Counted from the first letter of the stretch, positions 20,589 to 53,029 are shown. The stretch: DNA of 64,000 nt from an uncultured cyanobacterium (GCA_937922745.1 CALAJO010000033.1:2250-66249); one strand, 5' to 3'. The notes: generated from the sequence alone by a model not told the origin. Numbers and translations are program-made.

Positions 20589-20590
20589 TG

Positions 20591-21426: not shown

Positions 21427-21428
21427 GA

Positions 21429-23514: not shown

Positions 23515-23524
23515 ATCGAGACTC

Positions 23525-24082
23525 CTATATGTTTATGTCACATTGAATCTCATTGCCCCAGCTATCCCAGCCAGATCGTTTCTGACGGGCAAATAGTTCC
23601 AGCTTTTGAGCATCAGGATACATAGCTTCAATTCGTTCATACTGCTCATCCGGCTTTCGGGAATGCTCTCGACGGGGTGAGAGGATGAGGCTGGAAATGG
23701 TATTGACTGTCGGTTTTACCACCGGGCCTTTGGTGGCCAGCAAGCAGACTTCCGCATTGCTTTTGGTGTAATAGCCAACGCCAAAGAAGGGTGTTTGAGA
23801 CTTGGGGTTCAGCTTGCACCAAGTAAAGCCAATGGTTTTGTATTGGAAACCCCAGGCTTTTATGACTTCCAGGGCATCTTCCAGCATGGGGAATGTCGCC
23901 CAGAGAAACAGGATGCAACCATTGGGATCGGCCAGCTCACCTACCGGCAAGTTGCAGATGTCCTTGGTGGACATCAGGTCATAGTGACCGCAAGCACCTC
24001 CCCGGAATCGGGTTTTGTGGTTGGCTCTGGAATTGTATCTCCAAGGCGGATCCGCCAGGATGACCTGATACTTAGTAGTCAT
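23525..24082 (-). CDS. MT-A70-family N6-adenine DNA methyltransferase
   Basis: The catalytic motif is ILADPPWRY. Its size and remaining sequence fit the MT-A70/Dam-like phage methylases. The start is uncertain (24097, 24091 or 24082). Confidence 0.85.
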   Translation of the reverse strand: MTTKYQVILADPPWRYNSRANHKTRFRGGACGHYDLMSTKDICNLPVGELADPNGCILFLWATFPMLEDALEVIKAWGFQYKTIGFTWCKLNPKSQTPFFGVGYYTKSNAEVCLLATKGPVVKPTVNTISSLILSPRREHSRKPDEQYERIEAMYPDAQKLELFARQKRSGWDSWGNEIQCDINI

Positions 24083-25667
24083 CCCCACCATCTCCACCGG
24101 ATTCCAAGAATGGATTCTCTTCCGTTAAGCGACCTGTTTCCGGGATGTAGCGAAGGTAACAGGTTACGCCTGTTTCCCCACTGAAACGGTTTTTCAGGAC
24201 TCGAACCAAGGTCACGTTGGACTCCTTGGTATCCTGTTGGTTGCGTTCCAGGCCAATCACCAGATCCGAAAGCTGGGCAATGCCTGCTGAACCTCGTAAT
24301 TGAGACAGGGAGGTTTGGGCTCCTTCCTCATGGCCTTTGTTGCCTTCCGGGCGTTTGAGGTGGGAAATGAGAATTAATCCAACACCCAGTTCTTCCACCA
24401 GGGAGCGCAATGCCGTCATCGTGTTATCAATAATCCGGCGTTCGTCCCCTTCACTGAGACCGGAAATCACAATGGACAGGTGGTCCAGGATGATCCAGTT
24501 GCAATCGAATCCACGGGCCAGGAAGCGAATCCGACGAACCAGGTTTTCGCTATCCAAAGATCCGAAGTGGTCATAGAAAAAGACCCTTCCAGTTCCGAGG
24601 GTTTGGTCAAAGGCCAAGCGGAGGTCTTCATCACTGACCCCACCTCGATCCAGGTGCAACGGTTTACTGAGATGAAGACCCATGAGCCCCAGGGCCGTCC
24701 GCTTGACGTTTTCTTCCAGGGCAATGTAACCAACGGTTTCGCCCTGCTGAATCAAATGATAGGCGATCTCTCGACACGTCAGGGACTTCCCGATTCCGCT
24801 GCCTGCCGTAAATGTCACCAGCTCCCCTTTTCGTAAGCCGTGGGTTTTGGTATTCAGTCCAGGCCAAGGATAGGGAATGGCTTGGGCATCATCATCCTGG
24901 GTGACGACCTCCCAGAGTTCATTGCCTGAGACAATGCCATCCGGGCGGAAAGTTCTGGCCTCCCAGATGGCATCCAGAAGTTCCTTACCACGGCCCGCAA
25001 CCAACATATCATTGGCATCCTTAAGCGGTAGCGACGCAATCTTCGCTTTGCCGGGGCTGAGTAGTAAGGCACATTCGGCGGCAGACTCACGACCTTGTTT
25101 GTCGTTGTCAAACATGAAAACCACCGTCTCAAATTGCTCAAGCCAGTCCAGATTTCGTTGAATAGCCTTCTTAGCGCCTTGAGCGCCATTTGGGACGGAG
25201 ACAACCGGCCACCGATGGTTTTGAAGTTGGGATACGGATAAAGCGTCAATCTCTCCCTCGGTGATCACCACCATCTTCCCGCCATCCCGCCAGAGCCATT
25301 GGCCGTAAAGGCTAACGGCTTGGGGATTGCCCAGGAATTTAAACGTCTTGTCCGCAAAACGGATCTTCTGGGCAATGACATCGCCTTTGTAATTCCGGTA
25401 GTTGGCAATCTGAACCGGTTGGCCCTGGAAGTGTCCCTGTTGGTAATCCCATTTGGCACAACTGGCCAGAGTCAGACAGCGCTTTTTAATTTCTCTGCAT
25501 TCTCCGGCTACCGGATTAAATCGGCGTTGGGGACGGTGACGATGTTTGAGTTTGGATTCCCAGTAGTTACAACCGGGTGTGAAACATTTGGCGTGACCAT
25601 CCGGCCAGCGGCTCAAATTATCAATACTGCCGCAAGCTGGACAGGGTTCGTGTTGAACGGCTTCCAT
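24072..25667 (-). CDS. Bifunctional primase-helicase (T7 gp4 analogue)
   Basis: Zinc ribbon CPACGS...CFTPGC, TOPRIM (ITEGEIDALS...FDNDKQG), helicase Walker A FTAGSGIGKS and Walker B ILDHLS. The ATG at 25667 is preceded by AGGAG. Confidence 0.95.
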   Translation of the reverse strand: MEAVQHEPCPACGSIDNLSRWPDGHAKCFTPGCNYWESKLKHRHRPQRRFNPVAGECREIKKRCLTLASCAKWDYQQGHFQGQPVQIANYRNYKGDVIAQKIRFADKTFKFLGNPQAVSLYGQWLWRDGGKMVVITEGEIDALSVSQLQNHRWPVVSVPNGAQGAKKAIQRNLDWLEQFETVVFMFDNDKQGRESAAECALLLSPGKAKIASLPLKDANDMLVAGRGKELLDAIWEARTFRPDGIVSGNELWEVVTQDDDAQAIPYPWPGLNTKTHGLRKGELVTFTAGSGIGKSLTCREIAYHLIQQGETVGYIALEENVKRTALGLMGLHLSKPLHLDRGGVSDEDLRLAFDQTLGTGRVFFYDHFGSLDSENLVRRIRFLARGFDCNWIILDHLSIVISGLSEGDERRIIDNTMTALRSLVEELGVGLILISHLKRPEGNKGHEEGAQTSLSQLRGSAGIAQLSDLVIGLERNQQDTKESNVTLVRVLKNRFSGETGVTCYLRYIPETGRLTEENPFLESGGDGGDDY

Positions 25668-25686
25668 AAAGCTTGCTCCTGTCTGC

Positions 25687-25729
25687 AAAAAGAAAAAGAG
25701 GGCAGCCTAAGCAACGCTCAAACTGCCCT
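25687..25729 (-). terminator. Intrinsic terminator after the alpha/beta-hydrolase gene
   Basis: Minus strand reads AGGGCAG-17 nt loop-CTGCCCT followed by CTTTTTCTTTTT. Confidence 0.5.
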
Positions 25730-25754
25730 TCAGGGGGTTAGCGAGGAGTATGGG

Positions 25755-26411
25755 TTAGGAGAAGAGAGGGGAAAATATGGCTTTTACAGCTTTTAGATAC
25801 GTTTGCATGTTGTGAAAAGACTTAATGGGGAACTGATCACCCGGCTTACACCCTAATCCGTCAATGTATCCGCTCAGGATGTCATCGGAACTGTATATAT
25901 TGAACCAATCCGTGACAACCGGGCGGTTGCGGTTAGGGACTTTGAGAAACTGTTTAACCAGTTTTTCCAAAGGCGGTGAACCCAGTGTGGAACCGATGGT
26001 GATGAGAACCGGTTTACCACCAATGCCAGGGTAGTTTTTGATGGTTTCATAGGCCACCACACTACCGAGGCTGAAGCCTATAACAATGGCATTGGGGTTT
26101 TGTCGAAGCACATTAGCCAGCCGGTTCAGGATTTTCTTACGGACACCGGGCACCAGAAAGTACACCAGGATGTCGTCTACATAGTCCTGGATGTAATTAG
26201 CGGCTAAACCAACAACCGGCTTGGCATAATAGAGGGCCGCAATCCGGGCACTCCAGACCAGGGCTTTATTAAGCCAGTTCTTTTCCATCAGGTCTTCATA
26301 GACAAACTCAATGAGTTGATCTTCCTGAATGCCCAGAGTTTCTTTCACTTGGACGTGTTTCGTCCACCCAGGATCAGCATTGCCAATCCCGTTTATCGCA
26401 ATCACTTTCAT
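25755..26411 (-). CDS. Small alpha/beta-fold serine hydrolase (esterase/lipase-like)
   Basis: Nucleophile elbow GFSLGS, with later SSDDILSG and SFHNM as candidate Asp/His of a triad. RBS is GGAGAGCG. Confidence 0.55.
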   Translation of the reverse strand: MKVIAINGIGNADPGWTKHVQVKETLGIQEDQLIEFVYEDLMEKNWLNKALVWSARIAALYYAKPVVGLAANYIQDYVDDILVYFLVPGVRKKILNRLANVLRQNPNAIVIGFSLGSVVAYETIKNYPGIGGKPVLITIGSTLGSPPLEKLVKQFLKVPNRNRPVVTDWFNIYSSDDILSGYIDGLGCKPGDQFPIKSFHNMQTYLKAVKAIFSPLFS

Positions 26412-26422
26412 ATAGCGCTCTC

Positions 26423-27103
26423 CTAGTCGTAACGAAGCAGAGCGCTCCAGGTCCGGGGACCGACAATGCCGTCATCCATCAGGCGTTCCCGTTGTTGAAA
26501 CGCCTTGACGACCTTGGTGGTTTCCGGGCCAAAGACACCATCGACCTGAATTTGATAGAATCGACTGAGCTTGGCCTGAAGGGTCTTGACCAGTGGTCCT
26601 TTGGAACCTTGTCTCAACACTGAATAGACCAGCGGTTTATAGGGCTTGGGCTCTTTTAAATTTGAGCCTTGACCATTGCCTAGAGCTTTTCGGCGTTCCT
26701 GCCAGTCTTTGACATTGAAGGAAGGACAGCCACGGCCTGGGTTTAAGTCTCGATGTCCAACCACTTTGGCTTTTGGAAACTGTTGCTCCAATTCGGCAAC
26801 CAGCTTTTCCAGGGTGAGCCACTGGGCTGGGGTATAGTTGTTTTCAGGGGTTTTGTTGTCATTGGCGACACCGCCAACAAGGCAGATGCCGATACTTCGC
26901 TCGTTAAAGCCTACGGCATGGGCTCCAACAGCGTTGAGTTCACGACCATACTCAATAGAGCCGTCCCGTCTAATCACAAAGTGATAGCCGATACGGAACC
27001 ACCCCTTTGCCCGATGCCAACGGTCGATTTCCTTGGCACCAATATCCATTCCGGCTGGGGTGGCCGAACAATGGATAACGATAAAATCTGTACTCTTTCT
27101 CAT
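26423..27103 (-). CDS. N-acetylmuramoyl-L-alanine amidase (T7 lysozyme gp3.5 analogue) fused to a C-terminal peptidoglycan-binding domain
   Basis: FIVIHCSATP, GYHFVIRRDG and VVGHRDL...CPSF are Amidase_2 motifs. LRQGSKGPLVKTLQAKL...DGVFGPETTKVVKAFQ...DGIVGPRTWSAL is a PG_binding_1 repeat. ATGA overlap with the endonuclease gene. Confidence 0.9.
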   Translation of the reverse strand: MRKSTDFIVIHCSATPAGMDIGAKEIDRWHRAKGWFRIGYHFVIRRDGSIEYGRELNAVGAHAVGFNERSIGICLVGGVANDNKTPENNYTPAQWLTLEKLVAELEQQFPKAKVVGHRDLNPGRGCPSFNVKDWQERRKALGNGQGSNLKEPKPYKPLVYSVLRQGSKGPLVKTLQAKLSRFYQIQVDGVFGPETTKVVKAFQQRERLMDDGIVGPRTWSALLRYD

Positions 27104-27564
27104 GGGGCAATTCCTTTTTCTTGAATCCACCCAGGTGGAATGTGCTTGTCTGCATACTGAAAGCCGTGCTTTTCGCACCACATGGCGTAGGTGGTGTTGG
27201 ATTTCTTGGAAATACGGCTTTTGGAATAGTTGAAGACAAAGCGGATATCCAGCTCAGGGCGTTGTTGTTTAATAAGCAGGTGCTTTTGCCGGTCCGCTGT
27301 CACAAAGCGGCCTTTGGTCTCCACGATAATGCCGTTGGGCAGAATAAAATCCGGGGTGTAGCGGCACTTCTTTTCCGGGCGGATATATTCGATGGAGAGC
27401 GATTCAAACGAAAAGGCGACTCCTTGAGCCGCCAATTCGTCTGCAATTTTTTCCTCAAGCCCGGAACGCCATCCCTCCTGGAGACCTTTGGCTCCAGAAT
27501 TTTTGGGTTTACGAGAAAGCCCAGGAAAAGGGGTCGAACGACCCTTAGAAGTCCGCTTCATCAT
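27100..27564 (-). CDS. Endonuclease I / Holliday-junction resolvase (T7 gp3 analogue)
   Basis: YTPDFILPNGIIVETKG...RQKHLLIKQ matches the T7 endonuclease I core. Start taken at MMKRTSKG. Confidence 0.85.
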   Translation of the reverse strand: MMKRTSKGRSTPFPGLSRKPKNSGAKGLQEGWRSGLEEKIADELAAQGVAFSFESLSIEYIRPEKKCRYTPDFILPNGIIVETKGRFVTADRQKHLLIKQQRPELDIRFVFNYSKSRISKKSNTTYAMWCEKHGFQYADKHIPPGWIQEKGIAP

Positions 27565-28180
27565 CCGAGGGCTCTTCAGTGGCTTCCGTGCCTGCTTGGG
27601 TATAGCCGGTTTCCACACCAAAGCCGAACTTGTCGGCACTTTGGCCCAGATATTCCACCAGCTCGATAATCTGAACGGCTTTTAACCGGAGGGTGACACC
27701 GGCTCCCACCAGATCGGTATGATACGGGGAGATGTCGGCACACACTTTGATTCGGCTACCACTGCCAATCCGAATATCTTTGGAAACAATGGGTGTTCCA
27801 GCGGCGTCAAAGAGCTTGGGTCTCAGTTCAATGGGTTCACCACCATTGCGAGGCGTGACTTTGGCTTTGAGCTTGAAGTTGAACTGAATGTCCACAGTCT
27901 CGTTGCCATCATCATCCGTCACCTCAAAATAGGGCGGCTTGGCCATTTGAATCTTCTTGGCCTTTTGTGGATTTTCTTTCTTAGCCTTCTCCAGGGAATC
28001 GGTCATAGCGGCATCAATGGCCTTCATCATCTCCTGGGCCTCGGTGGCGGATAACAACAACCCCACACGGTACTCACCATCCGAATCAAACTTGGTATCC
28101 GGGCGGGTGAGAAACGGATAGGACGCCGTACCAATCGGGGAAACGAGTTGAACGGCTTTTTCTTTAACTTTCGACGGCAT
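27545..28180 (-). CDS. ssDNA-binding protein (T7 gp2.5 analogue)
   Basis: It sits between RNAP and endonuclease I. It has an acidic C-terminal tail ending in Phe (EATEEPSDDEADF), as in gp2.5. The ATG at 28180 is preceded by AAAGGAGA. Confidence 0.7.
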   Translation of the reverse strand: MPSKVKEKAVQLVSPIGTASYPFLTRPDTKFDSDGEYRVGLLLSATEAQEMMKAIDAAMTDSLEKAKKENPQKAKKIQMAKPPYFEVTDDDGNETVDIQFNFKLKAKVTPRNGGEPIELRPKLFDAAGTPIVSKDIRIGSGSRIKVCADISPYHTDLVGAGVTLRLKAVQIIELVEYLGQSADKFGFGVETGYTQAGTEATEEPSDDEADF

Positions 28181-28196
28181 AATAACGGTCTCCTTT

Positions 28197-28220
28197 TCGT
28201 TCCTTAGTAGGGGAATATTC
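28197..28220 (-). promoter_or_regulatory. Phage RNAP promoter P1 (GAATATTCCCCTACTAAGGAACGA)
   Basis: One of four near-identical 24-mers. It is 17 nt upstream of the SSB start and resembles the T3 promoter AATTAACCCTCACTAAAGGGAGA. Confidence 0.6.
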
Positions 28221-28232
28221 AATGTTGTAATA

Positions 28233-28248
28233 AATTCAAAATTGAATT
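28233..28248. promoter_or_regulatory. Palindromic operator AATTCAA-AA-TTGAATT
   Basis: Perfect 7-bp inverted arms located 12 bp upstream of P1. It belongs to the TTCAAAATTGAA family found before the early genes. Confidence 0.4.
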
Positions 28249-28251
28249 AAT

Positions 28252-30732
28252 TTAAGCAAAGAAAAACGCACTCTGCTTGACGGCCTCCAGATCCAGTTGG
28301 CCTTTAGGCGGAATGGGCGGTACTTTGCCGGTGTGTTTCTCAGATAACAGGTCCAAGAGTTCCGCTCGAAACTTCTCCAGGACATCATCCTGGTACATGG
28401 TGACAAAGACATCCCGGATACACTGAGCGGAAATCTCGGTATCAGCGGCCAGGGTCCCGTAACTGTCATGAACCAGCGAAAAGCTTTCAATCCCTCGTTT
28501 CACCGCCTCGCAAATATAGAGATGCAAGGCGGCTGCATCCATAGAGTGAACAAAGTTAGGACTGATGCCATTGGCTTGCCTGCGGATATCAATCACATGA
28601 TTGCCTTCCTGAAGGGAAAGCTTGATGAGGCGTCCGCTCAACTGGGTATCGATTTGCCGTGACTTCAGCTCATGGTAGACCTGCTGAACCGGAAACCCGG
28701 ACGGTGTGGTCCAATTGATGGGGAGCCCTTCCTTGGCTGCCAATGAGGCCACTTTCCGAAGCCAGTCCATAGCGTTTCGGGCGGCCACAACAACTTCGCC
28801 AATGCTATCCCAGACAATGCCTGCCAGATATTCCGAGGCTTCAAAGATGCGATCCCGTTCCGGCAAGGCAAAGATATTCTCTTGGCCTTTGCTGATGCAC
28901 TCCCGAAGGTACTCTTCGATGTACTCCCGGCAGGCATAGCGGGTTCCACCATAGGGCAGAATCATCACAGGGCGCTTGGTGATATTGCGATTGACACCCA
29001 ATTGAATCCATTTTTTTGCTAATTCGGATTCAGGATCATGGGTTTCAACGGCCTGATGGAGCTTTTCCAGCACCACATCGGCCACCCGTTGGTAAATATC
29101 CTGAGGTTGCTCTGATGGAATCAGGTTGACGGCTTCCCCGCCAATATGATCCCGAAGCATGGCGGAAAAGTGTTGGAGGCCGTTGCAACTGCCATCCAGG
29201 GCAATGGGAAGATGGGAGACAAACCCGTATCCCTGTTTGAGAAAGCCTGCCCATTCAAAGCAGAAAGCCAGAAACTGCCAGGGCTTATCCGCCTCAGTCC
29301 ATTCCAGGTTAGACAGCGGATCGTCTGCCACCCGGCAGATGTCATCGTTCATGGCTTCAATGAACTGAACCCGCTCATCCAGACTGACTTTATCGTGACC
29401 ATACACGTTGGCTCCCTGAATGGCCAGCCAGTGGGCGGCTTTTTCGGTCTCAATGGGCTTGCCATGAGCAAAGGTCAGCAAGGCTTTGGCCAAATCGGTT
29501 CCCTGGGGATTGAGGAAATTGGGTATCGGGTAAACCCGGCCCCGGAAATCGAGCATGTGGGGAAAATAGATCTCCGGCTCGTCCTTGAATTTATCAGCCA
29601 GATAGAGAATTTTACTGAACATGAGCCGTTTTGAACGGTTGACGATGTTTTGCTCATAGACATAGGCGGCCTGACGCTTCCAATCTCTGAGTATGCTTTT
29701 CTGCTCTTCCGTCATCTCATCGATTTTCAGATCTTTTGGAAGCTGGCACGGAACAGGCATGCGGTCATCCCGGAATGGGAGATTTCCTACCTGGGTATCG
29801 CTGGCCCAAATTTCCTTGAGAATGGACAAGACATCGGTGTTTACTCTCCAGGCGGTTTGTTGAACCAGGTTTAAAGCCTGATACACAATGGGCATCGGGA
29901 TGTGTTTCAGCTCTTCCATATAAGTTCTGGAATACGTTTTGACGATGCGAGGTTTTCGTATCAACGAGCTGTAATACCCGCCCGATGTTGGGTTTGTCCA
30001 TTCTTTGGGCGGCACAATCATGGGATAAAACTGAGGCGACAATAATTCGTTATGGGCGTTGGCCTCACTAATCCAATCCATTGTTTTCTGGGTGGCCACC
30101 AGATAGTAAGGCGTATTATTTTTGCTTTCAGTGAGTTTGACGATTTCTACCAGTCCGGTGGACTCGATAAACAGATCAATGCATTTCATCCCGATATGAA
30201 GCTTGTCAACCAGTGGCCAAGGCTCCCAGTCGATGCCATCCTTGTTCATCGAATGAATGAGAACGGTTCGTTTGTAGCTATAGGATGATTTCGCCTGAAC
30301 CCGGTTATAGACACTCTGGTAAAATGCCCTGTTTTCCTTGGCAAAATAGCTGAACCGGAGTTCATCTTCCAGGTTATTGACGATATTGACCGCCACATGT
30401 TGCAGCTTGAGACGCTTGGTAATGGAGTTTAATACAGACTTGGCCGCAATAAAAGCGATGATATCCGACTCCAACAGGCTGAGATAAGTGGCTGCAACCT
30501 GGGGACGGCCCACTTTAACCACTTCCTGAGTTTGGATATAGTCCTCTATCGCTTTCGAGAAGGGATCAAAGGTTTCTTTGAGCAAACGAAGGCCAGTAGG
30601 TGTGGTCGTCTCCATATTGCTCTCGTTGGCCTTTTGCTGAATATTGCGATACCGGGTTATACTTGACTCCAGCATTTCCTCTTCAAGCTTCAATTGCCGG
30701 TCAAGTTTGGATTCAACAGTGTTTGTATTCAT
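28252..30732 (-). CDS. Single-subunit DNA-directed RNA polymerase (T7 gp1 analogue)
   Basis: 826 aa. Contains DGSCNGLQHFSAMLRD (motif A), TKRPVMILPYGGT (motif B), LVHDSYGT (motif C) and a C-terminal ...SAFFFA, comparable to the T7 ...FAFA end. Confidence 0.97.
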   Translation of the reverse strand: MNTNTVESKLDRQLKLEEEMLESSITRYRNIQQKANESNMETTTPTGLRLLKETFDPFSKAIEDYIQTQEVVKVGRPQVAATYLSLLESDIIAFIAAKSVLNSITKRLKLQHVAVNIVNNLEDELRFSYFAKENRAFYQSVYNRVQAKSSYSYKRTVLIHSMNKDGIDWEPWPLVDKLHIGMKCIDLFIESTGLVEIVKLTESKNNTPYYLVATQKTMDWISEANAHNELLSPQFYPMIVPPKEWTNPTSGGYYSSLIRKPRIVKTYSRTYMEELKHIPMPIVYQALNLVQQTAWRVNTDVLSILKEIWASDTQVGNLPFRDDRMPVPCQLPKDLKIDEMTEEQKSILRDWKRQAAYVYEQNIVNRSKRLMFSKILYLADKFKDEPEIYFPHMLDFRGRVYPIPNFLNPQGTDLAKALLTFAHGKPIETEKAAHWLAIQGANVYGHDKVSLDERVQFIEAMNDDICRVADDPLSNLEWTEADKPWQFLAFCFEWAGFLKQGYGFVSHLPIALDGSCNGLQHFSAMLRDHIGGEAVNLIPSEQPQDIYQRVADVVLEKLHQAVETHDPESELAKKWIQLGVNRNITKRPVMILPYGGTRYACREYIEEYLRECISKGQENIFALPERDRIFEASEYLAGIVWDSIGEVVVAARNAMDWLRKVASLAAKEGLPINWTTPSGFPVQQVYHELKSRQIDTQLSGRLIKLSLQEGNHVIDIRRQANGISPNFVHSMDAAALHLYICEAVKRGIESFSLVHDSYGTLAADTEISAQCIRDVFVTMYQDDVLEKFRAELLDLLSEKHTGKVPPIPPKGQLDLEAVKQSAFFFA

Positions 30733-30769
30733 GGCTCATACTCCTTTGGTTCACTAACGTGTGTTGCCC

Positions 30770-30793
30770 TCGTTCCTTAGTAGGGGGAAATTC
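30770..30793 (-). promoter_or_regulatory. Phage RNAP promoter P2 (GAATTTCCCCCTACTAAGGAACGA) upstream of the RNAP gene
   Basis: 22/24 identical to P1 and 38 nt upstream of the RNAP ATG. Confidence 0.6.
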
Positions 30794-30821
30794 AAAATTG
30801 AAATTGATTCAAAATTGAATT
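30789..30821. promoter_or_regulatory. Two tandem operators (AATTCAAAATTGAAATT and GATTCAAAATTGAATT) overlapping the upstream edge of P2
   Basis: Same TTCAAAATTGAA core as 28233-28248. The first copy shares its left arm with positions -17 to -13 of P2. Confidence 0.4.
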
Positions 30822-30921
30822 AAATTACCCAAAAAAAGAGCACCCAAGGGCTATATGCCCAAAGGAGATATCGTATAAACGTGTAAAAGCTTTAATTGAG
30901 AGGATTTACAGGCAGGTTATG

Positions 30922-31299
30922 CTATTTTTTCTTGCTTTTCTTGGCTTCAACCAGTTCTTTTTCCTCAAGAAGACTCAGTAACTGGTCTCTAACCTCTTCC
31001 CCCTTCTTGGTAAGGAATGCAATCTTGCGAACTCGGTTTTCCGGGTCTTCCTCGGTAGCCAATAAACCAAAGCCCTGTTCATAGCGATCCCGCTTGTAAA
31101 ATGCACGGCTTAGGGCAGACACATGACGGTGAACGGTGACTTGAGGCAAGTTCAAGCGCTCTCCAATCTGAGTCAACGGGATCCGCTCGTGATAACACAC
31201 AACGAAAAAGACGCCTGCCATTTCCAGGCTCATCTTGGGATAAATATCCCTGAGAGCGTCAATCACTCTCAACTGTTTGACAAATTCCTGTTCGAACAT
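30922..31299 (-). CDS. MarR-family winged-helix transcriptional regulator
   Basis: IPLTQIGERLNLPQVTVHRHVSAL (HTH) followed by a wing (...ATEEDPENRVRKIAFLTKKGEEV). The ATG at 31299 is preceded by GAGAAAGAG. Confidence 0.75.
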   Translation of the reverse strand: MFEQEFVKQLRVIDALRDIYPKMSLEMAGVFFVVCYHERIPLTQIGERLNLPQVTVHRHVSALSRAFYKRDRYEQGFGLLATEEDPENRVRKIAFLTKKGEEVRDQLLSLLEEKELVEAKKSKKK

Positions 31300-31313
31300 G
31301 GCGGCTCTTTCTC

Positions 31314-31344
31314 GCAAAATTGAAATTATTACAGAATTGAATCC
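31314..31344. promoter_or_regulatory. Two degenerate operator copies (GCAAAATTGAAATT, CAGAATTGAATCC) upstream of the MarR-like gene
   Basis: They carry the AAATTGAA half-site of the operator family and lie immediately upstream of the regulator start, so autoregulation is plausible. Confidence 0.3.
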
Positions 31345-31418
31345 ATTATATCAAAAAGGGGGTCGAGTGTATTATTCCCTCAGGGCAGGGGAGTTAATCC
31401 CCCCTGAATGAAGGAATG

Positions 31419-31631
31419 TTACACATCCCAACATTTGAGATACTCATAACGTGGTGTTGCCCTGGTGATTCCTGTTATGGTGAGGGCTTGAGGAACCATC
31501 TCTGTTGGGATTTCCCAAAAGCCACCCGTGCAATAGGTTTTCCAGGAGTAATACCCTTGCGGTTTTTCAGGCAACAGGGCAAAGAGTTTTTGTCTTGCCC
31601 TGTGAGATGCACAACGAATCAGTGTTTTCAT
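31419..31631 (-). CDS. Hypothetical protein (70 aa)
   Basis: ORF in line with the early operon. No motif recognised. Confidence 0.3.
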   Translation of the reverse strand: MKTLIRCASHRARQKLFALLPEKPQGYYSWKTYCTGGFWEIPTEMVPQALTITGITRATPRYEYLKCWDV

Positions 31632-31646
31632 ACCATGCCCTCCTGA

Positions 31647-32042
31647 TTAATACTCTTCCGGCAACAAAACAACGGTTTGAGCCATCGGATCATAGGCTCC
31701 TGAAGTCTCATTGATGGCCCAGAATTTCAAGCCCTCTGTGAGGTCCGTATAGTCGATGTCCTGTTGAATCAGGGTTTTATAGTGGTGGTTACCTTCCTGG
31801 TCGTATTCTTCCTGTTGAATGGTAAAGACAGCGCTTTGATCCGGCTTTACCCCAACCGTGACAATCAGGAAGTAATCAACGCCTTTACGCTTGGCTAGTG
31901 TGGGAACATAAGAGGCGATGGTATCCATAACCCAAAAGCATTTGTTTCGCTCACAGTAGGCCATTACCCCACCCGTAGTGATCCAATGCTTTGCAAAGGG
32001 GCTGAAACGGTAGTAAACATCCTGTTGGTATTGTGTATTCAT
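31647..32042 (-). CDS. Hypothetical protein, possibly the DUF6876 type that accompanies ArdC on plasmids
   Basis: The ATG at 32042 is preceded by AAAGGAG. The pattern YYRFSP...ITTGGVMAYCERNKCFWVMDTIASY recalls the ArdC-adjacent family. The assignment is from memory only. Confidence 0.5.
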   Translation of the reverse strand: MNTQYQQDVYYRFSPFAKHWITTGGVMAYCERNKCFWVMDTIASYVPTLAKRKGVDYFLIVTVGVKPDQSAVFTIQQEEYDQEGNHHYKTLIQQDIDYTDLTEGLKFWAINETSGAYDPMAQTVVLLPEEY

Positions 32043-32080
32043 GGCAATGCTCCTTTTCACGTTGAGGGAAGAGACAGCCC

Positions 32081-32959
32081 TTAGGCTGCCTCCTCCATTT
32101 CTTCTGACACTTCGGCTTTGATGATGAACTGATGGGCCTTGCTGGCCTCGGTGGCTGCCTTAAAGATGGCCTTTTTGTCGTTCTTTAGCACTCTGAGCCA
32201 TGAGGCAATGTAAGCGTCATGCTGTACTTGCCCTTCAAGCCCCAGATCGGCAAACAGGAAAGCCGATCCCATTTCGGCTATGAGTTCCTCAAAGGCATAG
32301 GCTTCATCCCCAAAGCGTCCCTTAAAGTCTCTGTTTAACCGGGAATGGTGGCCTGTCCAGTGGGTTAGCTCATGAAACAGGGTGCAATAGTAATCCCCTG
32401 AGTTCTTGAACCGTTCCTTTTTGGGCATGCTGATGAAATCAAAGCTTGGAGAGTAACAAGCCCTGATGCCTACCGATTCAAAGCGTAGATCGGCTTTACT
32501 GGCCTGGATAATCTCCTCAATGCGTTGAATGTCTTCCCATGTTTGCTCACGCTTTACGGGTGGTGTGAGGTCAATCCCTTCACATTGATCCAGGTTGAAC
32601 ACGTTATACCACTTGAGAAACGGGATCCGCTTGTGCTTGCCGTCTTCTTCCTTATCCAGGAAGTTCCAGTAAACAACGGTCGTGGCTTTTTCACCACGAA
32701 TCACATTGCCTCCCATCTGTTCGGCTTGTTTGTAGGAAACCCAGGCATTGGCTTGATAGCCTTTTTCTTGTTGTGTAGCCCAGAGAATGGGAATATTGAT
32801 GCCACGATAGGAAAAGCCGGTTTTGAGGTTGTAAGGGATACCCTCAAACCCTCCATAACTGCTTTGATCCCAAGGGCATTTCCAGGGTCTTACGCCTTGT
32901 TCCAGGGATTGAATGATCTTGTCGGTGATCTCCTGGTAGAGGTCTCGTTTTTGGGTCAT
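32081..32959 (-). CDS. ArdC-like antirestriction protein (N-terminal ssDNA-binding domain plus C-terminal zincin metalloprotease)
   Basis: DLYQEITDKIIQSLEQG..PW...YRGINIPILW is DUF1738/ArdC-N-like, and HELTHWTGH is a zincin HExxH. The ATG at 32959 is preceded by AAAGGAG. Confidence 0.85.
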   Translation of the reverse strand: MTQKRDLYQEITDKIIQSLEQGVRPWKCPWDQSSYGGFEGIPYNLKTGFSYRGINIPILWATQQEKGYQANAWVSYKQAEQMGGNVIRGEKATTVVYWNFLDKEEDGKHKRIPFLKWYNVFNLDQCEGIDLTPPVKREQTWEDIQRIEEIIQASKADLRFESVGIRACYSPSFDFISMPKKERFKNSGDYYCTLFHELTHWTGHHSRLNRDFKGRFGDEAYAFEELIAEMGSAFLFADLGLEGQVQHDAYIASWLRVLKNDKKAIFKAATEASKAHQFIIKAEVSEEMEEAA

Positions 32960-32983
32960 GGTGTTTGCTCCTTTCATTTCATT

Positions 32984-33047
32984 GACTCAAAATTGAATGA
33001 AGTAACAGAATAATTGAATCAATTTTGAAATTAATTCAATATTGCAT
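32984..33047. promoter_or_regulatory. Cluster of 3-4 operator copies upstream of the ArdC gene (GACTCAAAATTGAATG; GAATCAATTTTGAAAT, inverted; AATTCAATATTGCAT)
   Basis: Same core as the other operators. It is followed upstream by two TTGACA/TTGACT boxes (33055-33080) that could be host-type early promoters. Confidence 0.35.
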
Positions 33048-33480
33048 GAATGTAGTCAAATAAAAATTTTGTCAACCCCTCAATTTTTTAAATTTATTGT
33101 TTGATTAAGTCAGAAGGTGCATAAACACCGCATATTGAACCCATGCAAAACATCACTTCACGATTCTTTAATTTCTCATAGGCAACAAAAGGGGAAGCCA
33201 TGGAACCCTGTCTTTGCTCTAAAAACAGGGCTCCAAGCATTGGAATTTTCAAATACAAGATCTCCATAATCACGCATACGACCTCATAACATTTTGAAAT
33301 TGCACCGCTTATATCGGCAATATTCCACAAAACTTTAATTTTTAAACACTTAAATAAAAGACTATGATAGAGTTTCAGAGATATAAGGATAACTATAGAT
33401 GTCTAAAACAGGCTAGAATAAAAGAAATGGGGCTTGCGTTTGATCAGATGGTCCTCAAAGAAGCCCATGAATACAGGACA

Positions 33481-33502
33481 AAGTGAGTAGAAACTGAGTA
33501 GT
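33481..33502 (+). repeat. Tandem 11-bp repeat AAGTGAGTAGA-AACTGAGTAGT (site B)
   Basis: Same unit, period and orientation as sites A and E, but located in the central control region rather than near att. Confidence 0.45.
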
Positions 33503-33834
33503 TTGTTATTCTATTCATCACCTGTAGAGCCTGAAAAGCCTTGTAATTCCTGAGTTTTCAATTTTAGACATCATCCCTTGTAAGGGTACTGTTTGCGATG
33601 GTGGCCAGTGTTGGGAGTCGATGGGGTAGAGGGGGGAAGCCGGTCAAAACGCTATCGATATAGGCTTTCACAAATTTTGACCAAATAATTGGGTCAATAA
33701 AAAGAAGGAAGGCAGTGAACGCCGTTAGGTGGACACTGCCTTTGAGTAGAGAGGCATGAGTGTGAAAGGAGCATGGTTAGGCTAATTATCAGATCAACTC
33801 TTTAATTAATATCTATATCTCTGTGTTTTTATCT

Positions 33835-33858
33835 CCCCTCCATAGTAGGGGAAAATTC
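33835..33858 (-). promoter_or_regulatory. Phage RNAP promoter P3 (GAATTTTCCCCTACTATGGAGGGG), leftward
   Basis: Member of the 24-mer family. It points into an AT-rich tract and the early module. Confidence 0.55.
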
Positions 33859-33872
33859 GGCGAGCGGGTTTT

Positions 33873-33896
33873 TAATTTCCCCCTACTATCGAGGGA
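33873..33896 (+). promoter_or_regulatory. Phage RNAP promoter P4 (TAATTTCCCCCTACTATCGAGGGA), rightward, in front of the structural module
   Basis: Inverted copy of P3 located 14 bp away. It ends 8 nt before the ATG at 33905. Confidence 0.55.
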
Positions 33897-33904
33897 AAAG
33901 AACT

Positions 33905-34093
33905 ATGCACGATGAATCATTTCCGTTTATACCCAAAGTGTTGCTCGATGAACTGAATGAACGCTACCCGGAACGATCTCCTGAATTGGAGTGGTCGGAC
34001 CGGGAAATCTGGCTTCGTGCCGGTGAACGTCGGGTCATTCGCTTTCTCAACGAGATGTTTAAACGACAGAACGAAAACATTCTGGAGAATTAA
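33905..34093 (+). CDS. Hypothetical protein (62 aa), first gene of the late module
   Basis: ATG directly downstream of P4. No motif recognised. Confidence 0.45.
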   Translation: MHDESFPFIPKVLLDELNERYPERSPELEWSDREIWLRAGERRVIRFLNEMFKRQNENILEN

Positions 34094-34096
34094 TTG

Positions 34097-34384
34097 ATGT
34101 GTTTATCAAAACCAAGCCCACCCAAGATTATTCAAGTCCCAGCGCCTAGCCGCTCTTCAGGAGGTGGGTCAGGTAGCGGTTCCAGCGCCAGTTCGGTCGC
34201 TTCACAAGTTCCACCTCCGCCACCGCCTCCAGAACCAACCCCGGAAGCACCGGTATTGAATGATGAGGAACGTCGAAGAAAATCAGATACCTCTATCCAG
34301 AGTGCTCAACGAAGTGGAACGAGAGCCTTTCGAATTGATTTACTGATTCCCGGCCCTGGGTCTGGACTCAATATTCCCTATTAA
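34097..34384 (+). CDS. Low-complexity Gly/Ser/Pro-rich small protein (hypothetical virion or assembly protein)
   Basis: MCLSKPSPPK..., then GGGSGSGSS and PPPPPPPEPTPEAP tracts. Confidence 0.4.
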   Translation: MCLSKPSPPKIIQVPAPSRSSGGGSGSGSSASSVASQVPPPPPPPEPTPEAPVLNDEERRRKSDTSIQSAQRSGTRAFRIDLLIPGPGSGLNIPY

Positions 34385-34395
34385 GGTGAGCCCCA

Positions 34396-35952
34396 ATGGA
34401 CAACCATATCGGTACGGCTGAAGCCCGATACCGGGAATTGGAGCCGAAACGGCTGGTTTATCTGGAGCGTTCCAGAGAAGTTGCCAAGTTTACCATTCCC
34501 AGCCTGATGCCTCCCAATGGACACAATTCCACAACCAAACTGGAAACACCTTATCAAGGCGTGGGAGCCCGTGGTGTCAATAACTTGGCATCAAAGTTGC
34601 TTCTTGCGTTACTGCCGCCTAACAGCCCATTCTTCCGGCTCAAGATAGAGGACTATATTTTAGACGACCTGGAAGTGACCAATCCCGGCTTAAAGACGGA
34701 ATTGGAGACGGCGCTTTCCCGGATTGAAAACGCCGTGATGACAGAGATTGAAACGTCATCGGATCGGGTGGCTGTCTTTGAAGTTCTCAAACACCTGTTG
34801 GTTGCCGGGAATGTCTTGATGGATATGTCGCATGAGGAGGGTATGCGAGTCTTTCATCTGGACCGCTATGTCGTCCAGCGAGACCCGATGGGGAACATCC
34901 TTGAAATCATTATTCACGAAACTGTTGCCCCGGTGGCCCTTCCCAAAGCAGTTCGAAAGCTGGTTGGTGAAAAGCTAGAAGGGACAGAGAAAACCGTCAA
35001 CCTCTTCACCATGATCAAACGTAATGATAACCACTGGAAGGTTTTTCAAGAAGTAAAAGGATTAGTCATTCCTGATACGGTTGGCACGTACCCCTTAGAG
35101 CGTTCACCATTCATTCCCTTGCGTGGCAACCGGATTGATGGGGAAGACTATGGCCGGGGCTATGTTGAAGAATATCTGGGGGATCTGAAATCCCTTGAAG
35201 GGCTCTCCAGAGCCATTGTCGAAGGTTCGGCAGCGGCTGCCAAGGTGCTGTTTCTCGTTAATCCCAATGGGACGACCAGAGCTAAAACATTGGCTGAATC
35301 TCCCAATGGGGCGATTCGGGAAGGCAATGCCGAAGATGTGACAGTTTTACAGGTCGAGAAGTTTAACGACTTCCGAATTGCGTATGAACAGATCAACAAA
35401 ATTGAAGAACGTCTGAGCTTTGCATTCCTGCTGAATTCCTCAATCCAACGTAATGCAGAACGAGTGACTGCCGAAGAAGTCCGCTTTATGGCCCGTGAAT
35501 TGGAAGATGCCCTCGGTGGACTCTATTCCATCCTGGCTCAGGAATTCCAGTTACCGTATGTCAGACGCAAAATCCACCAGATGGAAAAGGGGAGAAAGCT
35601 CCCCTCATTGCCGAAGAATACAATCAAACCAATGATCATCACTGGCCTGGAGGCACTGGGAAGAGGACACGATTTAAACAAACTCGATATCTTCATTGGT
35701 GGCTTGGCTCAGACCTTGGGACCTGAAATCCTGGCGCAATATTTAAATCTCGAAGATTACATTGCCCGCCGGGCCACCGCTATTGGAATAGATACCAAGG
35801 GCCTCATCAAGACCAAAGAAGAAATTGAGGCTGCCCAGATGGCATCCCAGCAACAAAGCATGATCAGTCAATTTGGCCCGGAAGTCATTCGGCAGGCCGG
35901 AGGCTTAATGCAGAAAGGAATACAAAATGGCCAAGTCCCGCAAACAAGTTGA
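34396..35952 (+). CDS. Head-tail connector (portal) protein, T7 gp8 analogue
   Basis: 518 aa, positioned before the scaffold and capsid genes. The N-terminal ...RYRELEPKRLVYLERSREVAKFTIPSL...P is typical of podoviral gp8-type portals. Confidence 0.9.
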   Translation: MDNHIGTAEARYRELEPKRLVYLERSREVAKFTIPSLMPPNGHNSTTKLETPYQGVGARGVNNLASKLLLALLPPNSPFFRLKIEDYILDDLEVTNPGLKTELETALSRIENAVMTEIETSSDRVAVFEVLKHLLVAGNVLMDMSHEEGMRVFHLDRYVVQRDPMGNILEIIIHETVAPVALPKAVRKLVGEKLEGTEKTVNLFTMIKRNDNHWKVFQEVKGLVIPDTVGTYPLERSPFIPLRGNRIDGEDYGRGYVEEYLGDLKSLEGLSRAIVEGSAAAAKVLFLVNPNGTTRAKTLAESPNGAIREGNAEDVTVLQVEKFNDFRIAYEQINKIEERLSFAFLLNSSIQRNAERVTAEEVRFMARELEDALGGLYSILAQEFQLPYVRRKIHQMEKGRKLPSLPKNTIKPMIITGLEALGRGHDLNKLDIFIGGLAQTLGPEILAQYLNLEDYIARRATAIGIDTKGLIKTKEEIEAAQMASQQQSMISQFGPEVIRQAGGLMQKGIQNGQVPQTS

Positions 35953-36169
35953 AGATCCCTCAGAAGTTGAGCGCCTGAAAGCTCAATTGGAAGTTGAGAC
36001 ACAGGCCCGTATGGATGCGGAACGTCATGCACAACAGGTTGAAAGCCAGACGGATTTATCCCGGCTTCAATCCGTGGCCTCTGAAGCCAATGCCGTGGCC
36101 AAACTATCCGCTAATCGTCAGCCCAAAATCAGCCTGATGTCTCACGGAATTACAAGAATCGATTTCTAA
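35927..36169 (+). CDS. Hypothetical coiled-coil protein (80 aa)
   Basis: ATG preceded by AAAGGAA, overlapping the portal 3' end by 26 nt. Confidence 0.35.
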   Translation: MAKSRKQVEDPSEVERLKAQLEVETQARMDAERHAQQVESQTDLSRLQSVASEANAVAKLSANRQPKISLMSHGITRIDF

Positions 36170-36183
36170 ACAAGGAGAGTCCC

Positions 36184-36918
36184 ATGGTAGACCGTATTGA
36201 AATCAAGTCAGAACCGACAGGACCGGATGTACCGGTTGAAAATCAACCAGTGGATGGTCAAAATTCCACCCCTGAAGTACAAGATCCTAACCGCCCGGAA
36301 TGGCTCCCGGAGAAGTTTAACAGCCCTGAAGACTTGGCGAAAGCCTATGGTGAATTGGAAAAGAAACTGGGCGATAATGGCCAGCAACCTAACCAGGAGG
36401 CTGTTAATCAGGTTGTTGAAGATGCCGGTTTGAAAATGACCGATTTAACGACCGAATATGAACAGAGTGGCAGTCTTTCGGAAGACAGCTATGCCAAGCT
36501 GGAGAAGTTCGGCATTCCCCGTGAATACGTGGATGGTTACATCCGAGGACAGGAAGCTCTTTCAGAAAAGTACCAATCCGATATTTTCAACATGACGGAT
36601 GGCCGGGATGGCTATACCAATATGATTCAATGGGCTGCCCAGAACCTCAGAGCAGATGAAGTCCTGGCATACAACACCAGTGTCAACAGTGGTGATATCG
36701 AACAAGCCAAGTTGGCCGTCAAAGGTCTGTTTGCCCGCTTTTCTGAAAATGAAGGCCATGAGCCTCGCTTGGTAACTGGGACTTCTGGTGCCTACAGTAA
36801 TTCAGTTTTCCGTTCCACAGCAGAACTAACCCAAGCTATGGCAGATCCAAAATACAAAACGGATCCAGCCTACCGTCAGGATGTTATTAACAAGCTTTCT
36901 CGTTCAAACATTTTATAG
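36184..36918 (+). CDS. Capsid assembly scaffolding protein (T7 gp9 analogue)
   Basis: Acidic 244-aa protein between portal and major capsid. RBS is AAGGAGAG. Confidence 0.65.
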   Translation: MVDRIEIKSEPTGPDVPVENQPVDGQNSTPEVQDPNRPEWLPEKFNSPEDLAKAYGELEKKLGDNGQQPNQEAVNQVVEDAGLKMTDLTTEYEQSGSLSEDSYAKLEKFGIPREYVDGYIRGQEALSEKYQSDIFNMTDGRDGYTNMIQWAAQNLRADEVLAYNTSVNSGDIEQAKLAVKGLFARFSENEGHEPRLVTGTSGAYSNSVFRSTAELTQAMADPKYKTDPAYRQDVINKLSRSNIL

Positions 36919-37066
36919 CGCAACCATTAGCGCCCCTTTTTAGGGGGCTGATGCGCTACACACCCAACACATGGAAACCTGGCCGGGTGCGCCCGACAAC
37001 CTGTGTGGACGGTGTTTCTCGGTGATGTGGCCAACGTTACTCAAGAATTAACGGAGAAACTTGGCT

Positions 37067-38017
37067 ATGTCGAATGCAACCCCATCACGTCTTGGGGCGA
37101 TTAACGATACAACAGGTTCTTACGCCCAGGACAACGCTCTATTTCTCAAGGTCTATGCCGGGGAAGTTATGACGGCCTTCAAAGAAACCAACGTGATGGA
37201 AGACAAGCATATTATGCGAGTCATCCAACACGGGAAGTCCGCTCAATTCCCTGCAACATGGAAGGCCGATGCCGCTTACCACACGCCCGGTAACGAACTG
37301 AACGGTTCACAGAAAATCAAACATGCGGAAAGAATCATCAACATTGATGATCTTCTGGTGTCTGACACCTTCATCGCCAACATCGATGAGGCAAAGAATC
37401 ACTATGACGTTCGTTCCATCTACTCGACGGAACAAGGTCGAGCACTCGCCCGGAAGTTTGACAAACAACTGCTTCAGGTGGGTGTCCTTGCGGCTCGTGC
37501 TTCTGCAACGATTACGGGTGGTTTTGGTGGAACCAAACTGGTCAACGCTCAATTTGATATTGATGCGGAGTCCTTGGTTGCCGGTATCTTCAACGCTGCC
37601 CAGGTCATGGATGAAAAGGACATCCCGGAAGAAGACCGCTTTTGCTTCTTGAAACCGAAACACTACTACATGCTCGCTCAACTGACCAAAATCATGAACA
37701 AGGATTGGGGTGGTATGGGCGTCTATGCGGAAGGTAAGGTTATCAAAGTCGCAAACGTCACCATCGTTAAAACCAATAACCTGCCTAACTCCAACATTTC
37801 TGCCGTATCAGGTGAACAAAACACCTATAACGGTGACTTTACCAATACCGTGGCTCTGGTCATGCACCGATCCGCTATTGGTACAGTTAAACTGTTGGAT
37901 TTGGCAGTAGAGTCCGAGTACGAAATCTGGCGTCAAGGCACCCTCATGGTTGCAAAGTATGCCGTTGGACACGGCATCTTACGTCCTGAGTGTGCTGTTG
38001 AGCTGGCGAAAGCATAA
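37067..38017 (+). CDS. Major capsid protein (T7 gp10 analogue)
   Basis: The ATG at 37067 sits 10 nt after GGAG. LFLKVYAGEVMTAF...VIQHGKSAQFP matches the conserved N-terminal block of T7-like capsids. Confidence 0.9.
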   Translation: MSNATPSRLGAINDTTGSYAQDNALFLKVYAGEVMTAFKETNVMEDKHIMRVIQHGKSAQFPATWKADAAYHTPGNELNGSQKIKHAERIINIDDLLVSDTFIANIDEAKNHYDVRSIYSTEQGRALARKFDKQLLQVGVLAARASATITGGFGGTKLVNAQFDIDAESLVAGIFNAAQVMDEKDIPEEDRFCFLKPKHYYMLAQLTKIMNKDWGGMGVYAEGKVIKVANVTIVKTNNLPNSNISAVSGEQNTYNGDFTNTVALVMHRSAIGTVKLLDLAVESEYEIWRQGTLMVAKYAVGHGILRPECAVELAKA

Positions 38018-38031
38018 GGGAGGAACCGTAT

Positions 38032-38349
38032 ATGGCCATTAACCTTTTATCCGGTCAGACCTCAAACGGTTCCGGCAGTGCTGTCACACTCAACGCCAAA
38101 GAAGGCGGAAACAAAATCGGATTTAGCGCCTTCGGTACGTTCGGCAGTGGCACCATCACCATCGAACTGGCCTTGGATGGCACGAACTATACCGCTGTCA
38201 CCACCTTTACAGCCGCAGCTTACAAAATGGTTGAAATCGTGGCGGAAGCAGGGTCTAAGATTCGTGCAACCTTGTCTGGTGCAACCAGCCCGAACGTTAC
38301 AGTTCAGATGTCTGGTGCTTTTACTGGCATTACTCGAACTGACGCATAA
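38032..38349 (+). CDS. Small beta-rich protein downstream of the capsid gene (hypothetical, possibly capsid-associated)
   Basis: Own RBS AGGGAGGAACCGTAT and its own ATG. 105 aa rich in Gly/Thr/Ser/Ala. Confidence 0.5.
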   Translation: MAINLLSGQTSNGSGSAVTLNAKEGGNKIGFSAFGTFGSGTITIELALDGTNYTAVTTFTAAAYKMVEIVAEAGSKIRATLSGATSPNVTVQMSGAFTGITRTDA

Positions 38350-38359
38350 CACAAAACAC

Positions 38360-38400
38360 AGAGAGTCACTGGCTTTTGGCTGGTGGCTCTCTTGTTTTTA
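38360..38400 (+). terminator. Strong intrinsic terminator after the capsid block (Tphi-like position)
   Basis: AGAGAGTCACTGGC-TTTTG-GCTGGTGGCTCTCT followed by TGTTTTTATTT. Confidence 0.65.
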
Positions 38401-38414
38401 TTTGAGGATTTGAA

Positions 38415-38993: not shown

Positions 38994-39000
38994 GTTTGCC

Positions 39001-47911: not shown

Positions 47912-47979
47912 CCCATTTCAAGCCATTTACCCCACAGCCCTGACGAATCCGTTGGGGCTTATTACTTTGGAGGAAATCC

Positions 47980-49587: not shown

Positions 49588-49591
49588 AACA

Positions 49592-50062: not shown

Positions 50063-50064
50063 CC

Positions 50065-52879: not shown

Positions 52880-52901
52880 AACTGAGTAAAAAGTGAGTAG
52901 T
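52880..52901 (+). repeat. Tandem 11-bp repeat AACTGAGTAAA-AAGTGAGTAGT (site E)
   Basis: Same architecture as sites A and B. It lies ~120 bp from the attR core, between the prophage tRNA and the core. Confidence 0.5.
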
Positions 52902-53021: not shown

Positions 53022-53029
53022 CTTGTAAG
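53022..53029. repeat. attR core (CTTGTAAG)
   Basis: Identical to 10308-10315. Confidence 0.8.

Follow-up and report, generated by a model that had tools for sequence, protein, structure and literature searches.

A predicted four-promoter set for a T7-type RNA polymerase in a divergently organized prophage of non-photosynthetic cyanobacteria

A 64,000-nucleotide stretch of DNA from an uncultured cyanobacterium (GCA_937922745.1 CALAJO010000033.1:2250-66249; hereafter the window, in whose coordinates all positions are given unless a related locus is named) harbors a temperate T7-like prophage of about 42.7 kb, the host of which is a Vampirovibrio-type bacterium, a member of the non-photosynthetic cyanobacteria (Vampirovibrionales/Melainabacteria). 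Its early/replication arm and its structural arm are read in opposite directions, and four copies of a 24-nt motif, P1 to P4, lie upstream of key genes and between the arms. These sites very probably represent the complete promoter set read by the prophage's own T7-type single-subunit RNA polymerase (RNAP). A first-pass annotation of the sequence had proposed them as promoters of this RNAP, and the proposal is now supported by the recurrence of the four-site arrangement in six related prophages, where the motif co-varies with the specificity loop of the RNAP, and further by an invariant C at -5 and T at -4, by an almost constant G at +1, and by the location of P1 and P2 at known promoter places.

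Four promoter-like sites and a T7-type polymerase

All four sites are intergenic and co-oriented with the genes downstream of them. P2 (30770-30793, minus strand; predicted +1 near 30775) is located directly upstream of the RNAP gene (28252-30732, minus strand), with a leader of 43 nt to the ATG at 30732. The RNAP gene sits between P2 and P1 (28197-28220, minus strand; predicted +1 G near 28202), and P1 precedes, as had been noted, the gene for a gp2.5-like single-stranded DNA-binding protein (SSB; 27545-28180, minus strand; phrog_112, E 7.5e-32; ribosome-binding site AAGGAG), here with a leader of 22 nt to the ATG at 28180; the SSB gene in turn heads the replication block downstream of P1. 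The remaining two sites are arranged back to back: P3 (33835-33858, minus strand; predicted +1 near 33840) is the leftward and P4 (33873-33896, plus strand; predicted +1 near 33891) the rightward member of a divergent pair, which is separated by 14 bp (33859-33872) and whose predicted starts are 51 bp apart. P4 is the sole promoter copy serving the 18-kb structural arm. The first late open reading frame (ORF) follows 14 nt on at 33905, and the predicted transcript start, GAGGGA, would double as its Shine-Dalgarno sequence. The four sequences, as well as the spacing and opposite directions of P3 and P4, are exactly as originally reported.

The motif is sharply delimited within the window. Its core, CCCCTACTA, occurs exactly four times without a mismatch, in agreement with the initial count. 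A 20-nt weight matrix built from P1 to P4 was used to scan both strands of the 64 kb, with 20 shuffled windows as control. While P1 to P4 score 26.5-28.9 bits, the next best match in the window reaches 13.1 bits, and the best match per shuffled window falls between 12.2 and 19.8 bits (n=20). Because the next best match is thus at the level of the shuffled control, there are four copies and no weaker ones above chance in the window; no match was found in E. coli genomes. The copies have 20 of 24 positions in common, and conservation continues through the predicted start. Each site forms one contiguous element from about -18 to +6, without a split into -35 and -10 boxes, and is composed of an AT-rich upstream part, (G/T)AATWT, a run of five C at -12 to -8, TACTAW at -7 to -2, and a G start. 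By their start regions the sites fall into two classes, with P1 and P2 reading ..TAAGGAACGA (P1 being of class 'TAAGGAAC') and P3 and P4 reading ..TATNGAGGG (P3 being of class 'TATGGAGGGG').

The class II and class III promoters of T3, T7, K11 and SP6 likewise are contiguous elements, from -17 to +6, with C at -5, T at -4 and G at +1. Compared with the annotated T3 promoter phi1.05, CATTAACCCTCACTAACGGGAGA, P2 has in common ATT at -16 to -14, CCC at -11 to -9, ACTAA at -6 to -2, and G at +1; the identity of 15 out of 23 positions given earlier is correct when counted against the T3 consensus. Differences to T7 and T3 comprise the five C at -12 to -8, the T at -7 and a specificity loop that is three residues shorter; moreover, in T7 and T3 transcription runs in a single direction and gene 1 is not preceded by a phage promoter.

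The polymerase itself is a protein of 826 aa with an unambiguous family assignment (phrog_414, E 1.6e-273; Pfam RPOL_N and RNA_pol). The catalytic and essential T7 residues D537, K631, Y639, H784 and D812 and the C-terminal FAFA are invariant in the RNAP alignment. Its best match in a cultured phage is the RNAP of LUZ100 (42% identity), and the top matches, LUZ100, Lo5R7ANS and Pasto, are all temperate T7-like phages, whereas identity to the T7 and T3 enzymes is about 36%. A candidate 'terminator' after the RNAP gene was rejected, as the sequence in question is the conserved FAFA coding end.

Comparative support for a promoter function comes from related elements. Seven contigs were collected by way of RNAPs in protein databases and derive from metagenomes and from metagenome-assembled genomes labelled Vampirovibrionales and Melainabacteria; a scan of genome contigs with exact RNAP peptides found no relative. 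In six related prophages, a promoter-like motif is present at the same four places, i.e., at the back-to-back pair, before the RNAP gene and before the SSB gene. The closest of them, L001 (RNAP 77% identical), carries the motif of the window at all four, reading TAATTTCCCCCTACTATAGGGAGA, which corresponds to the -6 to +6 segment ACTATAGGGAGA of T7 and T3; its paired sites read (T/G)AATTTCCCCCTACTATAGGGA(G/A)A, equivalent to T7/T3 -6 to +4 (ACTATAGGGA), and the late-direction copy ends in ACTATAGGGAGA. Five further relatives, with RNAPs 59-63% identical, keep the four-site arrangement and display three other motifs: ..CATACGCCTTWAGA in L003 (the ATACGCCTTWAGA type), ..GTAGCACTCATGGGAGA in L002, and ..ATAGGTTGC(A/C)CT(R)TAGGA, that is GGTTGC(A/C)CT(R)TAGGA, in L005, L006 and L007. 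L007 is exceptional in that its fourth copy stands before the ArdC gene rather than before the RNAP gene, where there is just a variant site. At this place (L007 9925-9955) its own GGTTGCACTA motif is absent and ..ATCACGCCTTGAGAGAGGG is present, which resembles the L003-type sequence and hints at a mosaic exchange of promoter modules among members of the clade.

An ungapped alignment of 27 sites from seven loci, anchored on the predicted start, shows no exception to C at -5 and T at -4; A at -17 and T at -14 each occur in at least 90% of sites, and 25 of the 27 have G at +1. The recorded T7 phi1.1A and T3 phi1.05 and phi1.1 promoters also have -14 T, -5 C, -4 T and +1 G. The specificity block at -12 to -8 instead changes between relatives, in parallel with the RNAP: when the seven enzymes are sorted by the segment that aligns with the T7 specificity loop (residues 739-770), four classes emerge, and these match the four promoter classes. 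The RNAPs of the window and of L001 have a three-residue deletion in the loop and an Asp at the column of T7 N748. T3 RNAP has Asp at this column too, and the T3 promoter, like that of the window, has C at -11 and -10. It is established that residue 748 sets the preference at -10/-11, as reported by Raskin and colleagues in 1992. The combination of fixed position and co-varying sequence points to polymerase-promoter pairs, and not to an operator or a host promoter.

The two start-region classes are a general property of the clade, because the paired sites at every locus start G-rich (GGGAGA, GAGGG or GGAGGA) and the RNAP and SSB sites start GAAC- or GAAT-like. By analogy, this recalls the class III and class II promoters of T7, respectively, which are likewise told apart by the initially transcribed sequence. 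In the late-direction sites of all relatives, GGAG or GAGG is followed by an ATG 13-18 nt on, such that the first predicted transcribed bases would also serve as the Shine-Dalgarno sequence. With seven polymerases (59-77% identical), four promoter specificities and loop-to-promoter co-variation, the clade represents a natural experiment, useful for understanding the evolution of specificity and as a source of orthogonal RNAP/promoter pairs.

The P3 leader and alternative readings of the sites

Several observations weigh against a complete, phage-specific promoter set or limit how it may be read. The element was found in DNA metagenomes but in no RNA sequencing run, the yield from RNA being four short fragments of relatives in two runs. 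With one late promoter serving 18 kb, the prophage has fewer than T7 or LUZ100. P4 has C at -1 and P1 to P3 start with GGA rather than GGG, so the exact start sites are guesses set by analogy. The alignment from which the specificity-loop classes derive is uncertain (indels), and the sample is small (seven enzymes). Between the gene for a MarR-like regulator (see below) and P2, where a terminator would be expected, the window has just a weak hairpin followed by a (T)7 run (z -0.46); terminators composed of a hairpin and a T-run are clear in L005 and L007 between the regulator gene and the position of the RNAP promoter. Finally, no gene lies within roughly 500 nt downstream of P3, and this stretch contains a strong hairpin with a U-run.

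According to the first-pass annotation, P3 and P4 fire into the early and late arms. P4 indeed points into the late arm on the plus strand, but a role of P3 as early-arm promoter is doubtful, because what lies directly downstream is not a gene but a conserved non-coding leader with a terminator-like hairpin. The longest ORF in this leader has at most 57 aa, and the leader is 87% identical to that of L001. Its first 50 nt or so are AT-rich in all loci. The hairpin (33709-33742, minus strand), at +98 to +131 from the predicted P3 start, has a 9-bp outer stem, AAGGCAGUG/CACUGCCUU, and together with the following U-run (33695-33708) extends to +145. It is 100% identical in L001 and is kept with a changed stem sequence in L003, L002 and L007. 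Two roles are conceivable for this predicted fold, namely termination of transcription or formation of the 3' end of a short RNA started at P3.

Beyond the hairpin lies the TTGGTCAAAATTTGTGAAAGCCTATATCG block (33656-33684, minus strand), near-invariant in seven loci and more conserved than any other part of the control region. This block comprises a -35-like TTGGTC, 16 nt and TATATC, contains TGTGA as well, and remained under threshold in a scan for sigma-70 promoters. Its constancy, set against the variation of phage promoters and operators, makes recognition by a host factor probable, and the block may represent an early promoter for the host RNAP or a host-factor site. A scan of the interval from 27 to 35 kb against Rfam returned nothing. 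A 40-codon ORF (MIEFQRYKDNYRCLKQARIKEM...) is located at 33364-33486 on the plus strand, opposite to the early arm and inside the control region; its 5' two-thirds are conserved as DNA in L001, and a 10-nt indel alters its end.

What might P3 be for, if not for expression of the early arm? It is conceivable, although we consider it a tentative proposition, that P3 is a genuine phage-RNAP promoter that makes a short RNA, either a replication primer or a regulatory small RNA. A priming role would make the site a transcription-activated origin of the kind seen at T7 phi1.1A/B, at T3 phi1.05 or at the mitochondrial light-strand promoter. P3 and P4 might then mark a bidirectional origin, with both arms being replicated and transcribed in the same direction. 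The conservation of the gene-free leader, the hairpin with its altered yet retained stems and the AT-rich stretch after P3 are consistent with this idea, as is the primary origin of T3, which is annotated directly after a phage promoter. In addition, the predicted P3 RNA carries UGCUCCUUUCA, complementary to the ribosome-binding site UGAAAGGAGCA of the ArdC gene; in the leader, TGCTCCTTTCA (33762-33772, minus strand) is perfectly complementary to the ArdC ribosome-binding region TGAAAGGAGCA (32964-32974, minus strand), and CTCCTTTC, upstream of the hairpin, is kept in the window and in L001, L003 and L002. A small RNA directed against this Shine-Dalgarno sequence is thus possible, but so is a chance match; the complementarity is short and is absent from L005, L006 and L007. 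Strand skews are of little help here, being confounded by coding-strand bias. Moreover, T7-type RNAPs partly read through many hairpin terminators, and P3 could still feed the early arm.

A bolder and more doubtful extension would combine these elements. Conceivably, the T7 plan has been reorganized in this clade about a central control region, whose back-to-back promoter pair is a transcription-activated bidirectional replication origin at which P3 makes a terminated primer or regulatory RNA of about 130 nt, and the RNAP gene, placed behind an operator-gated promoter, acts as a bistable 'autogene' switch between lysis and lysogeny. If true, both arms would be transcribed in the direction of fork movement, and the transcription-coupled one-way genome entry that is a hallmark of T7 could not work in the same way here. 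There is a parallel in human and yeast mitochondria, where divergent promoters (the light- and heavy-strand promoters, LSP and HSP) are used by the T7-related polymerase POLRMT and where short transcripts from one promoter prime replication. The two systems resemble each other in having a close divergent promoter pair in a non-coding control region and a single-subunit RNAP of the T7 family; they differ in that the mitochondrial system needs TFAM and TFB2, there is no homology between the DNA elements, and the replication role proposed for the prophage is hypothetical.

Could the 24-nt motif be an operator for a phage or host regulator instead? P3 and P4 together form a 29-nt inverted repeat with 83% complementarity, which might be taken for one large palindromic operator, and a prophage must silence its lytic genes. 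P1 and P2, however, are single oriented copies without an inverted partner; the copies point at the next gene, with 14-43 nt to the start codon for P1, P2 and P4; the likeness to T3 and T7 promoters extends right up to the start site; and the motif co-varies with the RNAP loop, while separate, locus-specific true palindromes already occupy operator positions. On these grounds we rejected the operator interpretation, which we regard as very improbable. That P1 to P4 are promoters of the multisubunit host RNAP, used with a special sigma factor or activator, is scarcely credible and was rejected as well: nothing speaks for it directly, save for the nearby candidate host-promoter block at 33656-33684, but the sites lack bipartite -35/-10 elements, their contiguous conservation over 20 nt reaches into the transcribed region, the prophage yielded no gene for a sigma factor, and the motif varies between relatives in related hosts while the nearby block stays constant.

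A MarR-like regulator and operator-like palindromes

A candidate lysogeny repressor is encoded upstream of P2: a MarR-like regulator of 131 aa (30922-31317, minus strand; phrog_9665 transcriptional regulator), which is homologous to the MarR-family regulator gp10 of LUZ100 (33% identity, E 3e-15); a Pfam search of this protein gave no match at E <= 0.001. Two exact TTCAAAATTGAA palindromes, 17 bp apart from center to center, are found at 30791-30819, corresponding to -27 to -16 and -44 to -33 of P2, and the P2-proximal one overlaps the GAA at the upstream end of the promoter. A pair in the same register, one of its members degenerate, lies upstream of P1 (28218-28246). Further operator-like copies overlap a sigma-70-like promoter (TTGATA-18-AATAAT) before the MarR-like gene itself (31315-31357) and, in two copies, precede the ArdC-type anti-restriction gene (32971-33062). 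No such palindromes were seen at P3 and P4 in the window. Relatives have other palindromes at the same places, namely GTAACTAAGTGAC, ATCAGATTCTGAT and TCACTTAGTGA. The TTCAAAATTGAA palindromes are likely binding sites of the MarR-like regulator, and their placement suggests that the bound protein would keep the RNAP from contacting the AT-rich upstream part of P1 and P2. Each RNAP/promoter pair would come with its own matching candidate operator of MarR type, placed to gate a T7-type promoter from upstream.

We envision a scenario whereby read-through of host RNAP from the early promoter and that of the MarR gene yields a small amount of phage RNAP, which would then amplify its own synthesis from P2 and turn on the replication genes from P1 and the late genes from P4. 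In the lysogen, the MarR-like protein on its operators would keep P2 and P1 shut, and P3 and P4 would be silent simply because no RNAP is present.

This scheme has a close precedent. Promoters of LUZ100 have been mapped by ONT-cappable-seq: phi1 immediately precedes the RNAP gene and follows terminator T4, and phi2 and phi3 lie between the RNAP and SSB genes; read-through by host RNAP, positive feedback through phi1 and MarR-like repression via promoter-flanking sites were proposed, and the model of a MarR switch was credited to Boeckman et al., 2022 (Putzeys et al., 2023, PMC10134795). The first-pass suggestion that P2, preceding the RNAP gene, provides positive feedback thus holds but is not new, because the same had already been proposed for LUZ100. 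By position, P2 matches LUZ100 phi1 and P1 matches phi2; P1 also corresponds to T7 phi1.1A and T3 phi1.05, which are annotated 26-29 nt after the RNAP stop codon, and its position is ordinary, being the first class-II promoter place of T7 and T3. The resemblance to LUZ100 further extends to a temperate T7-like lifestyle, a homologous MarR protein, phage promoters before the RNAP and SSB genes and repeated sites in their vicinity; a counterpart of the terminator that precedes the RNAP promoter in LUZ100 is less certain, given the weak hairpin in the window. There are clear differences, too. All genes of LUZ100 lie collinearly on one strand, and its phage promoters number eight, with one of them serving the capsid gene, as opposed to four here; in the model derived from LUZ100 and Pasto an integrase adjoins regulator and RNAP, the usual adjacency that the more distant relatives L011 and L012 also show; its MarR gene adjoins the integrase gene, whereas here the integrases are located about 20 kb away at the attachment (att) end; and its promoter, ATTACCACACAG, is unrelated to the motif of the window.

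Divergent layout and prophage context

The early/replication arm (19842-33330, minus strand) follows T7 gene order read leftward: a small ORF, ArdC, DUF6876, the MarR-like regulator, RNAP, SSB, endonuclease I and amidase are followed by primase-helicase, MT-A70 methylase, DNA polymerase, HNH, MazG-like, nucleotidase and exonuclease genes. The structural and packaging arm (33905-52198, plus strand) has T7 gene order read rightward, with portal, scaffold, capsid, tail tube A/B, internal virion proteins, fibre and large terminase. This distribution, the early arm on the minus and the structural arm on the plus strand, is found in the window and in L001-L007, the relatives with RNAPs 59-77% identical, all of which are divergently laid out; L013, whose RNAP falls within the same range of identity, is a remnant that lacks the structural arm. 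In L011 (51%) and L012 (48%) the layout is the ordinary T7 one on a single strand, and genes for MarR and integrase immediately precede that for RNAP. Seven independent assemblies share the divergent plan, and the relatives one step further away lack it; it is therefore real rather than an assembly artefact and, as judged from these sequences, a derived feature confined to one clade. The earlier remark that a divergent promoter pair for a single-subunit RNAP is unusual for T7-like phages holds, in that this layout is not seen in the classical members, which are transcribed one way.

The Xanthomonas phage Xp10 also combines a T7-type RNAP with two oppositely transcribed arms, but it is a siphovirus of the lambda-like kind, with structural genes unlike those of T7; in the prophage described here, both arms keep T7 gene content and order. 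A corollary is that the supposedly fixed one-way plan of T7 can split into two divergent arms served by a single back-to-back promoter pair, which raises testable questions about the replication of such a phage and the entry of its DNA into the cell. Moreover, the range of temperate T7-like phages is extended to non-photosynthetic cyanobacteria. In literature searches, outside of which Boeckman et al., 2022 lay, no divergent T7-like layout and no T7-like prophage of Vampirovibrionales was found. As far as could be checked, the divergent architecture, the back-to-back pair, the minimal set of four promoters and the host phylum are new, and so is the clade-wide co-variation, both between promoter and polymerase loop and of the operators; phage promoters and an autoregulated RNAP as such are known concepts.

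Not all members of the clade are intact. L005 (14880-17805), L006 (15139-17503) and L013 (12553-16875) are prophages in decay, from which replication genes, structural genes or both have disappeared. In L006 and L013, an arsenic-resistance-like cassette (ArsR, ArsC-like, glyoxalase and ACR3) is present on the opposite strand, and other inserted genes are found there in L005. All three decayed elements retain an intact RNAP of 823-827 aa, its promoters and the block of ArdC and regulator genes, and the polymerase module may have been domesticated in these cases.

The element in the window is bounded by the split halves of a tRNA-Val gene (10271-10315 and 53022-53062). This host tRNA is cut at the anticodon loop, its halves flanking the element with an 8-bp CTTGTAAG repeat, and it is not rebuilt; a complete tRNA-Val carried by the element itself (52768-52843) has a different acceptor stem. 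The left end of the element contains two integrases at the att end (10411-12406), some 19-20 kb from the MarR-like regulator, together with defence or cargo genes. Cargo at the far end of the replication arm (16827-19728) consists of ABC-3C (Lamassu-type) defence genes (CTD10 and DUF2326), and the same position is occupied in L001, L002 and L003 by CBASS-like SMODS, BrxL or an integrase.

The 9-mer AAGTGAGTA is present in six exact copies, all on the plus strand. It is arranged in three pairs spaced 11 bp apart (10446-10465, 33481-33500 and 52880-52899), two of which include the one-mismatch unit AACTGAGTA, and in single copies at 52650 and 52718. One pair adjoins each end of the prophage and the third, which is kept in L001, unexpectedly lies inside the P3 leader; these repeats are probably arm-type sites for an integrase or excisionase, a role that is less evident for the internal pair.

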